This document shows positions 4,208 to 59,100 of a DNA stretch of 64,000 bases, piece by piece (the stretch's first letter is position 1; every line of letters begins with the position of its first letter). Under the pieces are notes generated by a model, which saw only the letters and a list, made by a program, of their open reading frames with translations, did no database searches and was not told the origin of the DNA. A program made the position numbers and the translations under genes. Origin of the DNA: an uncultured Pseudomonadota bacterium (GTDB taxonomy: Bacteria > Pseudomonadota > Alphaproteobacteria > Rs-D84); assembly GCA_900320405.1 (NCBI GenBank), contig OOHM01000002.1, positions 159,211-223,210 of the forward strand, written 5' to 3'.

Positions 4208-4699
4208 TTACTTGCCAAAATGTTTTTTTAGTGTCTGGTACGCGGACGATATTTGTGTAAATTCGGTGCCGGTTGATTTGCCATTGGCGGTATCGGGGTG
4301 ATATTTTTTTGCAAGCGTTCGATATTTGGCCCCAATTTCACGCCAAGATGCCGTAATTGGTAACCCCAGTGTTTGGAATGCGGCGGTTATATTCGCCGGC
4401 AAAGATTTCTTTGGTGGCATTTTATCAAATGTGCTGCGTCCCGTTATAAAATCATTCAAAAACTTTATATATTCCGCGGAATCTTGTTCAGAACGTTTTT
4501 TTATCGGTTCGCCAAATGTTTGCCGTTCCCAATCTTCTTCGATTTCTTCGGGTGTCATATCGGCATAGAAATTCCAATTTTTATTATATTCGGCCGCGTG
4601 TTCTTGGCAAAAATTCCAATATTCGCGCAAATCGCGTGTTTTCGGTGCGCGGCACGTGCCGGCACGTTGGCATCCCGGAAAATCACATTTTTTTATCAT
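4208..4699 (-). CDS. J-domain protein: N-terminal Cys-rich Zn-ribbon-like segment plus C-terminal DnaJ J-domain (HPD)
   Basis: N-terminus CDFPGC...C...FCQEH. C-terminus REIGAKYRTLAKKYHPDTANG, with the HPD tripeptide. Confidence 0.65.
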   Translation of the reverse strand: MIKKCDFPGCQRAGTCRAPKTRDLREYWNFCQEHAAEYNKNWNFYADMTPEEIEEDWERQTFGEPIKKRSEQDSAEYIKFLNDFITGRSTFDKMPPKKSLPANITAAFQTLGLPITASWREIGAKYRTLAKKYHPDTANGKSTGTEFTQISSAYQTLKKHFGK

Positions 4700-5562
4700 T
4701 TCTTATTAGCCTTGATTTGGGACAATGGATGGTGTTCGGCAACAACTGCGGTTAATTTTTCGGGTAATACGTGAGTATAAATTTGCGTTGTGGAAATATC
4801 TTCGTGCCCCAACATTGTTTGTATTGCACGCAGGTTTGCGCCGTGTGCAAGAAGATGTGACGCGAACGAATGTCGCAATACATGCGGGGTCACGCGTCGC
4901 GGGTCAATTCCGGCCAATACCGCACATTTTTTTAATATCTTGAAAAAACCGTCGCGCGTGATGTGGCCCGATTTGGAATTTGATGGAAATACATATTTTG
5001 AATCGACATCACCGCGAATGTTCAACCATTTTTCCAATGCGTGTCGTGCAGATTCGTGCACCGGAACAATACGTTCTTTGGCGCCTTTGCCGTGAATCAA
5101 TAATCGGTCACCAAGGTTTGCCGTCATTGGTAATTCACACAGTTCGGAAACGCGCAGTCCCGACGCATACAATAATTCAATCATTGCGCGCAGGCGTACC
5201 GATGTGCGAATGTCGCCCGCGGACGATATTAATAATTCTATTTCTTCAAGTGTTAATAATTTTGGTAATGATTTCGCGCGTTTCGGTAATTCCAGGTTGG
5301 TTGTTGGATTTGTATCGATAATTTTTTCCAACATTAAAAATTTATAAAAACTGCGCAGGGCACTTGCCCGCCGGGCAACCGATGATGCGCATATATTTGC
5401 ATCGCCCAGGTATGATTGTATATCGGTTTCGGTTGCGTTCAATAAACCATTTGGCAACGCCGCGTCTGCGTGATTCAAATCGTTCGCGTATGCCGAAAGT
5501 GTATTTCGACTGCGGCCCTTTTCGGCGGACATGGCTTCTAAAAATATATCAATGTATTTCAT
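4696..5562 (-). CDS. xerD: Tyrosine site-specific recombinase XerD/XerC family (chromosome dimer resolution)
   Basis: Core-binding N-terminus (TLSAYANDL) and C-terminal catalytic motifs LRHSFASHLL...LGHEDISTTQIYTHV. Its start overlaps the preceding stop by 4 nt. Confidence 0.85.
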   Translation of the reverse strand: MKYIDIFLEAMSAEKGRSRNTLSAYANDLNHADAALPNGLLNATETDIQSYLGDANICASSVARRASALRSFYKFLMLEKIIDTNPTTNLELPKRAKSLPKLLTLEEIELLISSAGDIRTSVRLRAMIELLYASGLRVSELCELPMTANLGDRLLIHGKGAKERIVPVHESARHALEKWLNIRGDVDSKYVFPSNSKSGHITRDGFFKILKKCAVLAGIDPRRVTPHVLRHSFASHLLAHGANLRAIQTMLGHEDISTTQIYTHVLPEKLTAVVAEHHPLSQIKANKK

Positions 5563-5724: not shown

Positions 5725-6783
5725 TTATATGGTGTCAAAACTTGCGATAAATACCCCGGATGCAGATATAATAATAAGGGGTGGTGCAATAATGGCCAAT
5801 AATGTTGGTAATGTTCCGTTCGCGCCCAAAACACTAAATATGTTCAACAGAAAGTATAATACAAAACATGTTAATATTCCAAGACTGAATTTAAGTCCAA
5901 AACTGTGGTTGCGGCGTTGACGGGTTTGCGAAAATGCCGCGCCCAATGTTGCCATCGCAATCATTGTTAACGGCAAAAACAGCAGTGTCCAAAATTGAAC
6001 CAAATGTCCACGTACGGAAATACCAATGTCCGACATTTTTGTTATGAACGCCGGTAATTTCCAGAAGGATATTTGGTCGGGTTGCAAATATCGGTCCAGT
6101 ACGGTTTGTGGTGTGATGCGTGTGTCGATACGCCACGCACCAATGTGGGTTTTACCGTTGTCATCCAATATGGTTGCGCGTGTGGTTTCTAACCCGGTTT
6201 CGGATAATGTTATTTTATCTGTATCGATACGATTATTTAATTTGAATTCGGTGTTTTGAACATATATTGTTGTATTAAAAAACACAAGGTTGTCGCCATC
6301 TTTCTTCATATTTTTTGCGACCATCGTTATGTACCCGTTGTCCGAAGATTCGCGCAACCATATCGCATCGTCAACCAATTTCAATTTTTCGTCTGTGATG
6401 TTTTCTGAACCCAATTTTACCGCGTACGGGTTTATTACGGTTGTTGCGAATACACCGATTAAAAACGCCCCCAACAGAAATGGTCGGGCCTTTTGATATG
6501 GCGACAGACCCGCGGCGGATATAATAACGCCTTCGCTGGAACGGGTAAGGGTATAGTACGCGACCAATGTTCCCATAAATACCGCCAATGGTAAAAACAG
6601 TGGCACATATTCAATCAAACGAACCCATGCATCATTCAATGCGGCAAATATTGTTGGATTGCTGGGCAAACGTTCTACAAATGTGACGGCAAAGATAATT
6701 CCGCATACAACCAACAACACCAATCCCACGCCACCGAAAAATCGGCGGAATAAAAATCGTGATAAGATTCTTGTTTTAGCCAT
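5725..6783 (-). CDS. LPS export ABC permease, LptF/LptG (YjgP/YjgQ) family
   Basis: 352 aa. N-terminal TM bundle, central periplasmic beta-jellyroll region and C-terminal TM helices typical of LptF/LptG. Confidence 0.8.
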   Translation of the reverse strand: MAKTRILSRFLFRRFFGGVGLVLLVVCGIIFAVTFVERLPSNPTIFAALNDAWVRLIEYVPLFLPLAVFMGTLVAYYTLTRSSEGVIISAAGLSPYQKARPFLLGAFLIGVFATTVINPYAVKLGSENITDEKLKLVDDAIWLRESSDNGYITMVAKNMKKDGDNLVFFNTTIYVQNTEFKLNNRIDTDKITLSETGLETTRATILDDNGKTHIGAWRIDTRITPQTVLDRYLQPDQISFWKLPAFITKMSDIGISVRGHLVQFWTLLFLPLTMIAMATLGAAFSQTRQRRNHSFGLKFSLGILTCFVLYFLLNIFSVLGANGTLPTLLAIIAPPLIIISASGVFIASFDTI

Positions 6784-16558: not shown

Positions 16559-16584
16559 TTGTTAGTGTAAGTGGTTAGTGAAAA

Positions 16585-16610
16585 AACCGGCGGGGAACCG
16601 CCGGTTTTTT
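16585..16610 (+). terminator. Rho-independent terminator after ftsK
   Basis: ccggcgg-ggaa-ccgccgg hairpin followed by tttttt. Confidence 0.6.
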
Positions 16611-16666
16611 ATAAGTCCCCTTCACGTTTCGTGAAAGGGGGGGGCGCGGAACGCGGTGGGGTAGGT

Positions 16667-16756
16667 GGTCGAAATAATCGTACCTTTTTGTCCAGTACTT
16701 TTTTCAAAAATTATTTTCAGTAATTTCAATATGTTATGATTTAGCATAAGTACTGG
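16667..16756 (+). repeat. Cassette copy at 16.67 kb (truncated). It has the conserved leader, the left 21-bp IR arm and the spacer, but only 8 bp of the right arm; the promoter/RBS/start segment is deleted.
   Basis: Near-identical to 28565-28653 and 52470-52559. Homology resumes about 75 bp further on in the other copies. Confidence 0.7.
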
Positions 16757-17235
16757 ATAAAACGGTTGCATCAATTATCGCAATTAATTCAGTCTTCGCA
16801 GATACAATATCAACCGTTACATCACGGGGGTATGTTGATGCGGCGGTCGCAACGAAACAGCCGAAAATTCCCGCCGCCGGTACGAACGCATCTACACCCG
16901 GTGAAACGGTCGTTACATACACATCAACCGGCGATGGCACAATCGGTGAACGCGGAATTGTTGATATGGAAAGTGGATATATTGCGGGCGGTTTGGTTAC
17001 CGCCGAAGCATTAGAAGAGTATGTTAATTGTATGCAGAATCACCAAACGGGCTTTGAATGTGTGGAAGAAAATTCAAATGGTGATTGTATGCTGGTAACC
17101 CTGTTTGAAGAAGATCGGGATTGTGACAACCCGTTTGATGGAAAAATATGCAGCACGAATTCCGATTGCAACCAAAATGAAAATGAACGTTGCTTTAATG
17201 GCAGGTGTGTGGCGGTGGAACCCACAATAGGTTGA
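16750..17235 (+). pseudogene. 5'-deleted member of the polymorphic secreted-protein family: the frame stays open but there is no RBS, start codon or signal peptide N-region
   Basis: In-frame translation ...VASIIAINSVFADTISTVTSRGYVDAAVATKQPKIPAAG...ETVVTYTSTGDGTIGERGIVD... matches the mature N-termini of the 28719 and 52621 genes. The first in-frame ATG is at 16966 (track ORF 16966-17235). The C-terminus carries a Cys-rich module. Confidence 0.55.
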
Positions 17236-17315
17236 TTTGAATAATACTAATTTATTCTTTGTAATCCGGAATTTTTTATGGTATAATTCGGGTATCAAGA
17301 AAGGAGTATTACAAG

Positions 17316-43469: not shown

Positions 43470-43653
43470 ATGGGTCGATAAGACCCGCAAATTATATAAC
43501 CTTTTTTCAAAAATGCAAGTTTTTATCGTATGCCACACGGACCGCGGTGCAGAAAGGTATCCATACCTATATAAACTTTCATATCTGCGTGATAAGATTT
43601 AATTGTCAAAGAGTGTCAATGCACCCTTGGGAACAACAAAAAAAGGAGAAAAA

Positions 43654-44262
43654 ATGAAAAAAGTTGCTATTCCTGTTTTGGCGGCGGTTGTTGCGTGTCC
43701 TGCAATGGCCGGTCAACATTACCAAAACGAAAGTTTTTGGGATTCAATAAATCCGTATATGGCACTGCGTATCGGTGCGGGATATACAAATCATAACTAT
43801 AACTATAATAACAAAAAAGATTCTTTAACCGATGAAGAATTGCATGGTCGTGCCGCACTTGGTTTGGCAATGTGGTGCAACAAGGCGCGTACAGAAATTG
43901 AATGGTCTATATTTACCAAGACCAAAGATGATGCTTCGTTTAATACCGGAAACAGTATCAAGGTTGATACAAAATTACAAACGTTGTTGATGAACGCCTA
44001 TATGGATTTGGGTGATTATCAAATGATTCGTCCGTTCGTTGGTTTTGGTGCTGGTGTTGCGTTCGCAGATGTGTCACGCGCTGTGCCGGGCGAAGCAGTA
44101 TATAACCGTGATCGTACACGTTTTGCCGCAATGGGAACAATGGGTATGACTTTTGATTGGCGTGTGTTCGCTGTGGATATGGCGTTCCGCTATACATATG
44201 CAGACGTAAATTCTGGGCTGCATAATTTTGGCGGCGATATCGGTATAAGATATATGTTCTAA
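43654..44262 (+). CDS. Predicted small outer-membrane beta-barrel protein (OmpA/OmpW-like 8-strand type), C-terminal ...RYMF
   Basis: RBS aaaaggag. Signal peptide MKKVAIPVLAAVVACPAMA. Alternating hydrophobic beta-strands and a terminal Phe. Confidence 0.6.
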   Translation: MKKVAIPVLAAVVACPAMAGQHYQNESFWDSINPYMALRIGAGYTNHNYNYNNKKDSLTDEELHGRAALGLAMWCNKARTEIEWSIFTKTKDDASFNTGNSIKVDTKLQTLLMNAYMDLGDYQMIRPFVGFGAGVAFADVSRAVPGEAVYNRDRTRFAAMGTMGMTFDWRVFAVDMAFRYTYADVNSGLHNFGGDIGIRYMF

Positions 44263-52469: not shown

Positions 52470-52620
52470 GGTCAATTTAATCGTACCTTTTTGTCCAGTA
52501 CTTTTTTCAAAAATTATTTTCAGTAATTTCAATAGGTTATGTTTTGGCATAAGTACTGGTCAAAAAGGTACCTTTAATGCCATAATATATGTGTATAAAA
52601 CAAGCAAGAAAGGAAGGGAT
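52470..52620 (+). repeat. Cassette copy at 52.47 kb (complete). IR arms at 52482-52502 and 52552-52571 (1 mismatch), a 49-nt spacer and a promoter/RBS region up to the ATG at 52621.
   Basis: About 95% identical to 28565-28718 over ~150 bp, in both the IR unit and the downstream cataata...tgtgtataaaacaagca...aggaaggg segment. Confidence 0.75.
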
Positions 52621-53190
52621 ATGAGGATTCCATTTTTAACATTTGGTGCAATTGCATCCGTTTTAACAATCAATTCATCATTTGGGGTATCGTCCACGGT
52701 GACGTCGCGGGGGTATGTTGATGCGGCGGTTGCAACCAAACAGGCGATAATACCGGCCCAGTCGGGTGATTATGTCGTAATGTATCCAAATGACGATAAC
52801 GGCGATGATGATGGCGCGATTGGTATGCGACAAATTATCACCGATGTTGATAATTATAACGATGGCAATGAATTGGTGACGGTTGGTGCGATAAACAATG
52901 CACTGCAAGACAAACAGGATATTATTCCTGCGGGGACCAGTGGTAATTTGGTGACATATACCGGAACGGCGGGTTCGGTTGGTTCGGCATCGGTTTATAA
53001 TGCATCGAATTCATACAGCGGTCAAACCACCGCGTTGGTCCAGGCGCAACATGTGAACGCCGCGGCAATGAATGCGTTTAACGCGCATTTGACATGTAAT
53101 ACATACGATACCAGTGGAACCCAAACGGCGGAACACTGTTTATTGTGGAGTGTGAATAATTTATCAGGCACGTATGTTCCGGGAAATTAA
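52621..53190 (+). CDS. Secreted Gly/Ser/Thr/Asn-rich protein, member of the polymorphic family (signal peptide MRIPFLTFGAIASVLTINSS)
   Basis: N-terminus nearly identical to the 28719 gene for ~25 codons. Motifs STVTSRGYVDAAVATKQAIIPA and a repeated ALQDKQDIIPAGTSGNLVTYTG. A single Cys pair includes HCLLWSV. Confidence 0.7.
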   Translation: MRIPFLTFGAIASVLTINSSFGVSSTVTSRGYVDAAVATKQAIIPAQSGDYVVMYPNDDNGDDDGAIGMRQIITDVDNYNDGNELVTVGAINNALQDKQDIIPAGTSGNLVTYTGTAGSVGSASVYNASNSYSGQTTALVQAQHVNAAAMNAFNAHLTCNTYDTSGTQTAEHCLLWSVNNLSGTYVPGN

Positions 53191-53221: not shown

Positions 53222-54256
53222 ATGAATACAAAATTATTATTACCCATAATTGCAATGACGATAATCCCGGTTGTGTATGCGGACACCGTTACGGTAACCA
53301 GTCAGGATTATGTTGATAATGTTATGAATACAAAACAAAATAAAATTGCGGCCACATCCGGTGACCGGGTTGTGACATATTCGACCACGGCGGGTCAAAC
53401 GGGTTCGCGCGCGATATTGGACGATTTGTCGGGCACGACAACAACGGATATGAACCTGGCCACGGCGATGGCGGCGGGAGATGCCGTATTCAGTAAAAAT
53501 CAACAGGTGTTAAACATTGGCGCGCCAAATGTGTTGACATATTATGGCAATAATATAACATGGGGGGCATTGACGGCGACACCGATATATAATAACACGG
53601 TAAACACATTTTCCAATGGGTTGGTGGATGCGGCGACGTTAAATACGGCAATGACGGTGGCGGCAAATAACGAAATGGTGTGCAGTGAATATGCCCCTGG
53701 TATGCCGGAAACAGATGCGAATTGCATGCTGTGGGAAATAAACACGGCGGCGACGAATCCATTGAACACTACGGCATATTTGCCGGCGAATGTAAATGGG
53801 ACATCGTATTGTTATAAATCGCATAATGGCAATAATAATTCTAGTGGTAAATGTTCAACAACGATGTATAATGCATTTAACAAGGGTGATTGGGGCACGG
53901 TGTTTTCGTATGGCACGGTGACGGGTATAAGTGTATGCAGCGATATAGAACCGTCAATAAAATGGGACTATGATGATGGGGAAAGCCAATGGACCAAATA
54001 CCTGTCGTATCAGGTATCAACAAATCAAAGCGGTGTGCAATCACAATACGATGCATGGGTGTCGGGGGGCCGTTCCGCAACGCCCGTTGGTGGGTATTGT
54101 TATTGTAAATTAACAAATCCATCTGTTTCGGCGGCGCGCTGGGTGTTCAGGATCTCGTACTCCGTTTCGGACTGTGCGAACCTCTGTACGTACTACTGCA
54201 CGAACGCCGTTCGGACCGACGCCGAATTCCGTGGGGCCGTCTTCGGGGCGCAATAG
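53222..54256 (+). CDS. Secreted protein (344 aa), a divergent tandem paralog of the polymorphic family without the cassette
   Basis: Signal peptide MNTKLLLPIIAMTIIPVVYA. Motifs DTVTVTSQDYVDNVMNTKQNKIAATSGDRVVTYS and NCMLWEI. Cys-rich C-terminus. Own RBS aaaggaatg. Confidence 0.65.
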   Translation: MNTKLLLPIIAMTIIPVVYADTVTVTSQDYVDNVMNTKQNKIAATSGDRVVTYSTTAGQTGSRAILDDLSGTTTTDMNLATAMAAGDAVFSKNQQVLNIGAPNVLTYYGNNITWGALTATPIYNNTVNTFSNGLVDAATLNTAMTVAANNEMVCSEYAPGMPETDANCMLWEINTAATNPLNTTAYLPANVNGTSYCYKSHNGNNNSSGKCSTTMYNAFNKGDWGTVFSYGTVTGISVCSDIEPSIKWDYDDGESQWTKYLSYQVSTNQSGVQSQYDAWVSGGRSATPVGGYCYCKLTNPSVSAARWVFRISYSVSDCANLCTYYCTNAVRTDAEFRGAVFGAQ

Positions 54257-58116: not shown

Positions 58117-59100
58117 ATGTTTCGCAAGATTTTGATTGCTGCAATGTTTGCAACCGCCGCGGGATACTGCTTTGCGGACGCCGCTTTGCCCCAGGTTGTC
58201 ACATCGGAAGTCTTTTATGACGAAGATAAAGATGTTCGTGAAAATACAAATGTTCAGGAACAGTTTTATGACAATTCTTACCAGCAACAGGAAGTTTACC
58301 AGCCCCAGGTTTATCAACCGGTTATCCCCGTGGATGTTCCGGCGTGGCCATTGGCGGGTTCGGATGCCGATGTGACTGTTTCGTGTGAACAGGGGGTATG
58401 CGCCAAAACCGCACAATCTGATAACATCAAAATTGTTTCCAAAATAGGTTCAGATTTGGTTGTCGAAAATAATTTTAATTTGGGTGCACGCGATGGTTGG
58501 TCGGGTGGTGCAAATATGTTGCACGGTACCCAGATTCCGGTTGGGTTTGATGACGAATGTGCGCGTGGTTCGGAAATGCCGTTGTTGCATCGTGAAATAT
58601 TGGAAGATGATGGCGGAAATGTTTTGGCGTTGTCGCGCAGTGGCCGTCGAAATTGTGCAAAATATGCCGATGGGTATGATGCGTATTTGGCGCGTAATGG
58701 TTTGATTGAACGCACGGCAAATGGCGACATCGTGACTGGTGGTGGTGTTATCGGCCTGAACGGTATGACCAGTTTTGTCGAAGGTGATACAGAAATAACG
58801 GTTGATTTATCTGCGGATGCGGAACCGGCAAATTCTGTCCAGGACCAGGTTCGTTCTTGGGTTGTGGCCAGTGGCCAGACATTGCGTGAAGTTTTGCAGT
58901 CTTGGTGTGATAAAGAAGGTTGGGATTTGGTATGGGCAACATCGCGTGAATATCCGATTCAGGCAAGTGCGGTCTTTAAGGGACGCTTTGTTGATGTTGC
59001 GTCGGCGGTTGTGCGGAATTTTGAACGCGCAATACCGATACCGTATGCCAAGTTCTATAAGGGGAATCGTGTTTTGGTTATATCTACGTCCGAAGAATAA
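58117..59100 (+). CDS. TcpQ/PilL-like protein (secreted; partner of type IVb pilus secretins)
   Basis: Signal peptide MFRKILIAAMFATAAGYCFADA. C-terminal domain WVVASGQTLREVLQSWCDKEGWDLVWATSREYPIQASAVFKGRFVDVASAVVRNF...PYAKFYKGNRVLVIS matches the TcpQ/PilL signature as I recall it. Immediately followed by a secretin gene. Confidence 0.5.
   Translation: MFRKILIAAMFATAAGYCFADAALPQVVTSEVFYDEDKDVRENTNVQEQFYDNSYQQQEVYQPQVYQPVIPVDVPAWPLAGSDADVTVSCEQGVCAKTAQSDNIKIVSKIGSDLVVENNFNLGARDGWSGGANMLHGTQIPVGFDDECARGSEMPLLHREILEDDGGNVLALSRSGRRNCAKYADGYDAYLARNGLIERTANGDIVTGGGVIGLNGMTSFVEGDTEITVDLSADAEPANSVQDQVRSWVVASGQTLREVLQSWCDKEGWDLVWATSREYPIQASAVFKGRFVDVASAVVRNFERAIPIPYAKFYKGNRVLVISTSEE

Follow-up and report, generated by a model that had tools for sequence, protein, structure and literature searches.

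The master serine invertase Mpi of Bacteroides fragilis flips the promoters of seven capsular-polysaccharide loci, and 13 regions in all (PMC4747536, citing Coyne et al. 2003), and most of the 38 mpl (P35) lipoprotein genes of Mycoplasma penetrans carry their own adjacent invertible promoter (PMC2268961, citing Horino et al. 2003). Enterousia and other members of the order Rs-D84 are uncultured gut residents with reduced genomes, which in Enterousia measure less than ~1 Mb, and an unknown way of life (PMC12306168). Here, we analyzed a 64,000-nucleotide (nt) stretch of contig OOHM01000002.1 (hereafter the window) from a Candidatus Enterousia bacterium (Alphaproteobacteria, order Rs-D84; genome ~0.9 Mb), which holds three copies of a cassette in which a short inverted repeat precedes a gene for a small secreted protein. 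We conclude that the inverted repeat is an invertible DNA switch flipped by site-specific recombination, and that the copy beginning at position 16667 is a locked-off, fresh, strain-private pseudogene and a case of ordinary gene decay; we give this reading as a whole a probability of about 0.75.

The cassettes probably belong to the Mpi-type multi-promoter phase-variation systems, which have not yet been described in this group; our literature search returned nothing tying Enterousia or Rs-D84 to inversion or phase variation. As in B. fragilis, many dispersed switches share a common type of site, with a separate surface or secreted product under the control of each, the sites combine an A-tract with a ACGTACGT-like centre, and a serine recombinase of the Mpi type (NCBIfam NF009949) occurs in the genus, with a lower-scoring one adjoining a switch. 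The inverted-repeat motif of Mpi, which we take to be ARACGTWCGT, is matched exactly by AAACGTACGT in the JGI sample Ga0310690. Unlike B. fragilis, the host is a genome-reduced alphaproteobacterium and not a member of the Bacteroidales, and the targets are single small orphan-protein genes in place of polysaccharide operons. Mpi-controlled invertible regions are roughly 170-230 bp, whereas the segment described here measures 85 bp between site centres.

The mpl system provides a second parallel, with one small invertible element per family gene, several loci, a reduced genome and combinatorial ON/OFF control of an exported repertoire. There is no sequence relationship to mpl, whose products are lipoproteins, whereas the proteins described here carry a signal of the signal peptidase I (SPase-I) type without a lipobox; for mpl, Xer-like tyrosine enzymes are the candidate recombinases, in contrast to the serine Mpi-family enzyme that is the leading candidate in Enterousia. 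With Hin/hix and Gin/gix, the sites share a palindromic half-site, a 2-bp centre and an A-tract half-site, the centres being AA and TT in a related metagenome-assembled genome (MAG), and hixL, which is presumably TTCTTGAAAACC-AA-GGTTTTTGATAA, can be set beside GGTCAAAAACG-AA-CGTTTTTGTCC of that MAG. Inversion of the Hin type makes use of HU and of an enhancer to which Fis binds (PMC9368917). Unlike Hin, which acts on segments of ~1 kb, the present system has an 85-bp segment with no evident enhancer, and the site centre in the species of the window is a palindromic TA. A truncated, promoterless copy and 5' modules that evolve in concert also recall Neisseria pilE/pilS, Borrelia vlsE and Mycoplasma genitalium MgPa. 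Unlike those silent-cassette systems, the family lacks both a silent archive and a single expression site, its truncated copy is not conserved as such, and the other copies are independently switchable.

The 86-bp deletion in the 16.7-kb copy

Each unit of the family consists of the terminator of an upstream gene, an 85-bp switch, a fixed leader with a ribosome-binding site (RBS), and a gene for a 165-190-amino-acid (aa) Sec-exported, Cys-rich protein (coordinates in Table 1). In a three-way alignment, the 16667 copy misses a block that is present in both the 28565 and 52470 copies, as had been recognized in the original prediction made from this sequence. Using the same-strain orthologue on contig L005 as the reference, we found that the missing block is exactly 86 bp (L005 6416-6501), comprising 58 nt 5' of the ATG and 28 nt of coding sequence, and not ~75 bp as first estimated; the match to the other copies, thought to end at 16756, runs to 16762 (...GTACTGGATAAAA). 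The extra 86 bases of L005 sit between GGATAAAA and CGGTTGCATC. Over stretches of 10.2 and 9.2 kb, contigs L005 and L007 (ENA ERZ28612998 scaffold_1, 915,787 bp) differ from the window in nothing but these 86 bp, and at 52 kb scaffold_1 remains displaced against the window by exactly 86 bp, so that the deletion is the sole length difference over that span.

The loss takes AGGTAC(C), which is the centre and outer half of the gene-proximal (right) recombination site, together with a -10-like TGcCATAAT, the 5' untranslated region or leader, the RBS AAGGAA, and the ATG and 9 1/3 codons in which the signal peptide begins. A consensus scan of the intact allele also finds a match, TGGATA-18-TGcCATAAT, that spans the right site and is gone from the window; the term promoter denotes a consensus match only throughout this text. 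The predicted loss of the RBS and start codon was therefore borne out, and that of the promoter stands only in this sense. The right inverted-repeat arm, which had also been listed as removed, is largely still there: it retains 15 of its 21 nt, coding sequence supplies a CGGTTG in place of the outer AGGTAC, and 17 of the 19 positions of 16748-16766 can pair with the left arm. The lost segment also contained this copy's A-run between the -10-like box and the RBS. The run varies by copy, from A8 in the intact 16.7-kb allele (L005 6455-6466) to A3-A6 in others (window 28704-28712 and 52606-52614), and such a homopolymer might modulate expression.

The remaining frame is open from 16750, directly behind a TAA at 16747-49, to the TGA at 17233-35. 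It offers no in-frame ATG, GTG or TTG ahead of the ATG at 16966 and no Shine-Dalgarno sequence ahead of any candidate start, in agreement with the original prediction. As the RBS, the ATG and the start of the signal peptide are all missing, no exported protein should be possible, and we conclude from the sequence that the gene at 16763-17235 cannot be translated or exported. The 89-aa product that could begin at 16966 has no record in the searched protein collection. The surviving 473 nt show zero substitutions relative to intact alleles and are 100% identical to that of L005, which encodes a 166-aa protein 99% identical to P0001; in a protein search, the truncated translation matched P0001 (166 aa, beginning MRISILTFGAVASIIAINSVFA) with 99% identity over 97% of the query. 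Since the surviving sequence is identical to intact alleles of the same strain, the deletion must be very recent.

Comparison of the locus across strains and species, for which further contigs were reached via the neighboring ftsK and 402-aa genes, revealed that the truncated structure is not kept among relatives. The gene is intact and the sequence otherwise identical in three other samples (L008, L001/L009 and L002/L010), giving intact alleles in at least four samples of the species, and the orthologue is also intact in a species with ~84% nucleotide identity (L003, GCA_045546075.1). In a 98-99% identical strain (L004), the whole cassette and its gene are absent, and ftsK is followed by 84 bp and then by the 402-aa gene; three states of the locus thus exist in the species, namely intact, absent and decapitated. 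The L004 interval (6212-6295, corresponding to window 16559-17315) comes from Logan SRR17023472, with five similar places, and includes 26 unrelated bases. The truncated state was seen in no other assembly, and the junction 28-mer has no match in JGI metagenome contigs. Only one switch orientation is seen at the 16.7-kb locus itself. With an intact orthologue in the closest relatives and the signals essential for expression removed by the lesion, the copy has the character of the 5'-decapitated pseudogene that was originally proposed.

The breakpoint had been placed exactly at the edge of the element. In fact, only 3 nt separate the left breakpoint from the dyad centre of the gene-proximal site, which is suggestive. 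The breakpoint flanks share only GGT, offset by one base, within an imperfect repeat that matches at 8 of 16 downstream positions (P ~0.04), and the upstream flanks match at 0 of 8. We considered a clean deletion by a serine recombinase at a pseudo-site and rejected it, as the junction base is C and not A and the upstream flanks do not match, which does not fit a cut at the central TA. The deletion could equally well stem from slippage or illegitimate recombination.

An invertible switch ahead of a family of secreted-protein genes

The 21-nt arm GTACCTTTTTGTCCAGTACTT has five matches in the window at up to three mismatches, where none is expected by chance, and a repeat finder groups the three window copies into one 162-nt repeat family and two shorter ones. 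On contig L032 (ENA ERZ28613021), window positions 52494-52560 are present as the reverse complement with one point difference, and the flanks match the window at 100% identity over 743 nt on the upstream side and 2050 nt on the downstream side. The one mismatch between the arms (GAC vs GTC) has changed arms together with the core. A second case is found in the relative MAG, where the core of L027 is reversed relative to both its terminator-side and leader-side flanks when compared with L019, L026 and L015. As the perfect repeat is only 11 nt long (21 nt with one mismatch), which is below any usual assembly k-mer, the orientation in each contig must come from the reads. These data demonstrate that the inverted repeat is an invertible DNA switch flipped by site-specific recombination, and they give substance to the earlier view that the arms are recombinogenic, since the arms are the recombination sites inverted in L032 and L027. 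The crossover must fall within GTACCTTTTTG / CAAAAAGGTAC.

The two sites are each ~25 bp long and palindromic about a central 2 bp, with their centres 85 bp apart. The arms read GTACCTTTTTGTCC...GGACAAAAAGGTAC in the species of the window and GAACGTTTTTGTCC...GGACAAAAACGTTC in the Enterousia MAG GCA_045546075.1, and the changes between species are compensatory on both arms (GTACC..GGTAC vs GAACG..CGTTC). In the relative MAG, the 2-bp centre is reverse-complementary between the sites (AA/TT), which, judged by its form, is the layout of serine-invertase sites.

Seven switch loci are found in the species, located after ftsK (named from Pfam matches), hlyIII, ruvX, tsf and rpsI and at two further places. 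When species-representative genomes were searched for the left arm, it matched at 11 places in Candidatus Enterousia sp. GCA_045546075.1 and at one in the rumen MAG RUG12956. A family gene follows the switch wherever the downstream region is visible (7 loci in the species, 11 sites in the relative), and the switches of the species all have the same orientation except that of L032. Every other family member examined carries a switch, an RBS and an ATG, the exception being the gene at 53222-54256, which has no switch of its own and is probably co-transcribed and co-switched with 52621-53190 as a two-gene operon. A tblastn search of the window identified four family genes, three of them complete, and no other truncated or promoterless family fragment.

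The encoded proteins have a signal peptide that is conserved in all 59 aligned homologues and is of the SPase-I type (...NSVFA/DT, cleaved at the slash) with no lipobox. It is followed by a conserved N-terminal block (STVTS.xYVD...KQ..IPA...GxTVVTYT...IGERGI), a variable middle and a Cys-rich C-terminus. No Pfam or NCBIfam family matched these proteins, and an AlphaFold2 model with a pLDDT score of 67 gave no Foldseek match in the PDB at E<=0.001. Among seven paralogues, identity is 78-94% in the ~190-nt 5' modules (switch, leader and first 13 codons), as opposed to 52-60% for the remainder of the genes (window 16667-16800, 28565-28760 and 52470-52660 compared with L060, L065, L074, L079 and L003). 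For the orthologues of L005 and L003 this relationship is reversed, as their gene bodies share 90% identity, compared with 63% for the switch and 68% for the leader plus the 13 initial codons. The contrast between paralogues and orthologues indicates concerted evolution of the switch module within a genome. Two core types coexist in the species.

Table 1. Features of the 16.7-kb locus, its intact paralogues and the recombination sites of the family. Positions are those of the window.
Feature	Position	Strand	Description
Intrinsic terminator of upstream ftsK	16581..16611	+	CCGGCGG-GGAA-CCGCCGG, then T run; read from sequence; not listed by consensus scan
Distal (left) recombination site	16667..16693	.	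GGTCGAAATAATCG-TA-CCTTTTTGTCC; imperfect palindrome around TA 16681-16682; intact
Left inverted-repeat arm	16680..16700	+	GTACCTTTTTGTCCAGTACTT; exact match
Invertible core, 47 nt	16701..16747	.	Common ("distal") orientation; conserved A/T-rich half TTTTCAAAAATTATTTTCAGTAATTTCAA adjoins left site
Surviving inner right arm, 15 nt	16748..16762	-	Inner half-site of gene-proximal site, AAGTACTGGATAAAA
Deletion junction	16762/16763		86 bp gone, by comparison with L005
Sequence absent from window	16762/16763		AGGTACCTTTAATGCCATAATATATGTGTACAAAACAAGCAAAAAAAAGGAATGAAATATGAGGATTTCAATTTTAACATTCGGTG
Junction-spanning sequence of window allele			AGTACTGGATAAAACGGTTGCATCAATT
Family-gene body, decapitated	16763..17235	+	Second base of codon 10 to TGA; without start codon or RBS
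First canonical in-frame start, ATG	16966..17235	+	89-aa fragment without signal peptide
Intact paralogous cassette	28565..29228	+	Switch 28565-28671; gene 28719-29228, 169 aa
Intact paralogous cassette	52470..53190	+	Arms 52483-52503 and 52551-52571; gene 52621-53190, 189 aa; core 52494-52560 inverted in L032
Larger family member, eighth gene	53222..54256	+	344 aa; own signal peptide; no own switch; 31 nt behind 52621-53190
Sites, species of the window			Left GGTCGAAATAATCG-TA-CCTTTTTGTCC; right GGACAAAAAGG-TA-CCTTTAATGCC
Sites, relative MAG			Left GGTCAAAAACG-AA-CGTTTTTGTCC; right GGACAAAAACG-TT-CCTTTTTTGTT
Site, JGI sample Ga0310690			Left GGACATAAACG-TA-CGTTTTTGTCC; right not separately listed

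A candidate for the enzyme that acts on these sites comes from contig L042 of sample Ga0310690, where a gene for a 215-aa serine recombinase (756 to 109, minus strand) and a switch are neighbors in divergent arrangement, with a family-like gene beyond the switch. The L042 protein scores 260.6 bits against NF009949 (master DNA invertase Mpi family serine-type recombinase), below the cutoff of 272. P0152 of Ca. Enterousia merdequi, which is 68% identical to it, scores 274.6 bits and is annotated in nr under the name of that family.

Several further features of the switch and its surroundings were recorded. Just downstream of one family gene of the same genome, L065 carries a gene for an HU/IHF-family DNA-bending protein (1895-2173; PF00216), and the core holds a match (TTTCAATATGTTA) to the IHF-like WATCAANNNNTTR that is perfect in L024 and L074 as AATCAATGACTTA; it is speculative that a sharp DNA bend could help the synapsis of sites 85 bp apart. 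In sample Ga0310690 (L039, L047, L048, L052, L058 and L042), compound switches occur in which GGACATAAACG-TA-CGTTTTTGTCC sites join two cores back to back. In L047, a gene lies on either side of the compound switch, a shufflon-like arrangement, and the L042 switch is flanked by the Mpi-like recombinase gene and the family-like gene, which encodes 286 aa. Several copies in the relative MAG have a ~250-nt GC-rich, hairpin-rich repeat (...GTCATCCCGGCGCAGGCCGGGACCC...GGGTCCCGGCCTGCGCCGGGATGAC...) between the switch and the RBS (L003 120-340; L019, L022 and L029), and it also occurs upstream of one cassette of the window's species (L060 ~870-1000). This repeat, which may be an element resembling a miniature inverted-repeat transposable element or a structured leader, was not found in the window.

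The ftsK terminator has the form of one that would insulate the cassette from read-through. Between it and the switch lies a G-rich, locus-specific spacer (16611-16666) with two small hairpins (CCCCTTCACG/CGTGAAAGGG and GCGCGGAACGCG), which is missing at both other window copies. The public gene call for the 28.5-kb copy is 199 aa long (window 28629-29228; P0068, L070) and starts inside the switch, whereas 169 aa are encoded from the ATG at 28719 behind the RBS; the longer call looks like an annotation artefact from a frame that is open across the element. Elsewhere in the window, a TcpQ-domain protein (58117-59100, plus strand) and a protein with a weak match to the Rickettsia Adr adhesin (43603-44262, plus strand) are encoded, neither of which was tied to the cassette.

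Alternative explanations for the locus

An alternative to a recent pseudogene is that the deletion is an assembly or consensus artefact, in which the 86 bp exist and were lost when contigs were joined within a repeat, or a minority haplotype was taken. We consider this unlikely. Other same-strain assemblies do have contig breaks within the cassette (L006 at its end; L008, L009 and L010 at their starts), L011 and L012 start 13-16 nt past the junction, the deleted allele was found nowhere else, and all else that was compared is 100% identical to scaffold_1. Such an error would nonetheless have had to arise at a junction that offers no usable overlap for a graph or overlap join, given the 0/8 upstream match and the offset GGT; a De Bruijn assembler needs reads containing a junction to make it, and the window crosses both other cassettes correctly, with an offset of only 86 bp as far as 52 kb. 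It is quite improbable that the inverted repeat is instead an RNA or DNA hairpin or a palindromic operator, so that the deletion merely took a regulated promoter. The switch does fold as a long hairpin (z-scores -3.6 to -6.6), and covariation of the arms between species would be expected there too, but neither a hairpin nor an operator accounts for cores inverted between unchanged flanks in two independent cases (L032 and L027), for the L032 arm mismatch that travels with the core, or for orientations that are supported by reads because the arms are below the usual k-mer. Each arm moreover belongs to a palindromic site, with the centres of the relative MAG reading AA (left) and TT (right), one switch (L042) has a serine invertase gene as its neighbor, and a search of Rfam at the gathering threshold yielded two tRNAs in the window and no match in the cassette.

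Previously, it had been proposed that the 16667 copy might be a silent donor cassette, maintained for gene conversion in the manner of pilS, vls or MgPa. The copies recombine at the 5' module, as the identities of modules, gene bodies and orthologues given above indicate, and the family resembles a variable secreted or surface repertoire. However, given that the truncation is private (other assemblies of the strain and a related species keep the intact form, and another strain is cassette-free), that no archive of further truncated or promoterless copies exists in the window, that the other copies each come with a switch, RBS and ATG, that there has been zero divergence since the deletion, and that the variable parts (52-60%) are too diverged for homologous conversion, we regard a donor function as very improbable. 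That the copy encodes a functional truncated variant from an internal or non-canonical start, such as the 89-aa product from the ATG at 16966, is hardly credible. The frame is open over 16750-17235 and contains this ATG, but a strong terminator and no plus-strand promoter-like site lie upstream, no candidate start has a Shine-Dalgarno sequence, and the product is not on record and would lack the signal peptide of all 59 aligned homologues, leaving a Cys-rich domain that is unlikely to fold in the cytoplasm.

Several observations weigh against our own interpretation of the pseudogene and of the system to which it belongs. The deletion is read from the assembly and might reflect a minority variant or an error of assembly, its junction sequence was found in no other assembly, and the junction base C is at odds with a clean recombinase cut at the central TA. 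Inversion was seen in only 1 of ~45 contig instances in the species (L032), the ON orientation is assigned from consensus motifs only, and the invertible segment, at 85 bp, is shorter than is usual for a serine invertase. No Mpi-family gene was found in the window among 20 scanned open reading frames or by tblastn with Hin, P0152 and P0121; scaffold_1 (915,787 bp) was not among the best 120 matches of either large protein search for the invertase; and the sole recombinase of the window is a XerD-like tyrosine recombinase (4696-5562, minus strand). The latter scores above the NF001399 subfamily cutoff and below the XerD and XerC equivalog cutoffs, and no link between it and the cassette was made.

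Proposed working of the switch and its meaning for Enterousia

Our model is that a master serine invertase of the Mpi family acts in trans on all copies. The A/T-rich half of the core (TTCAGTAAWWTCAA and an A/T run) may carry promoter or UP-element determinants; on the minus strand of the 16.7-kb core, there are promoter-like consensus matches (ATAACA-16-AATAAT and TTGAAA) that would face the gene after inversion. An inverted core would read GAAAATAATTTTTGAAAAAAG-TAC-TGGACA ahead of the fixed TGcCATAAT box, as it does in L032. The A/T-rich half lying beside the gene would then be the ON state, and the orientation found in the window would be OFF or low. The 86-bp loss takes the centre and outer half-site of the gene-proximal site, so the 16.7-kb switch should be dead and would no longer be recombinable.

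For the system as a whole, we lean towards combinatorial phase variation in Enterousia, in which one Mpi-family invertase serves at least seven 85-bp switches, each gating one small secreted Cys-rich orphan protein, while concerted evolution keeps the modules uniform and damage to a site, as at 16762/16763, permanently retires members. If true, these elements would be among the shortest natural invertons and would place an Mpi-type system outside the Bacteroidales, and the 85-bp segment would test the shortest DNA loop that a serine invertase can synapse. The orientation of the switches can be scored in existing metagenomes. There are also consequences for annotation, as gene callers mis-start across the switch and assemblies break contigs there. 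The decapitated copy is itself routine, and its switch context is the more useful finding. At least eight genes and seven switches in a genome of ~0.9 Mb are devoted to a variable secreted repertoire, a commitment suggesting that hosts, phages or partner cells exert strong diversifying pressure, as they do on mycoplasmas and Bacteroides.

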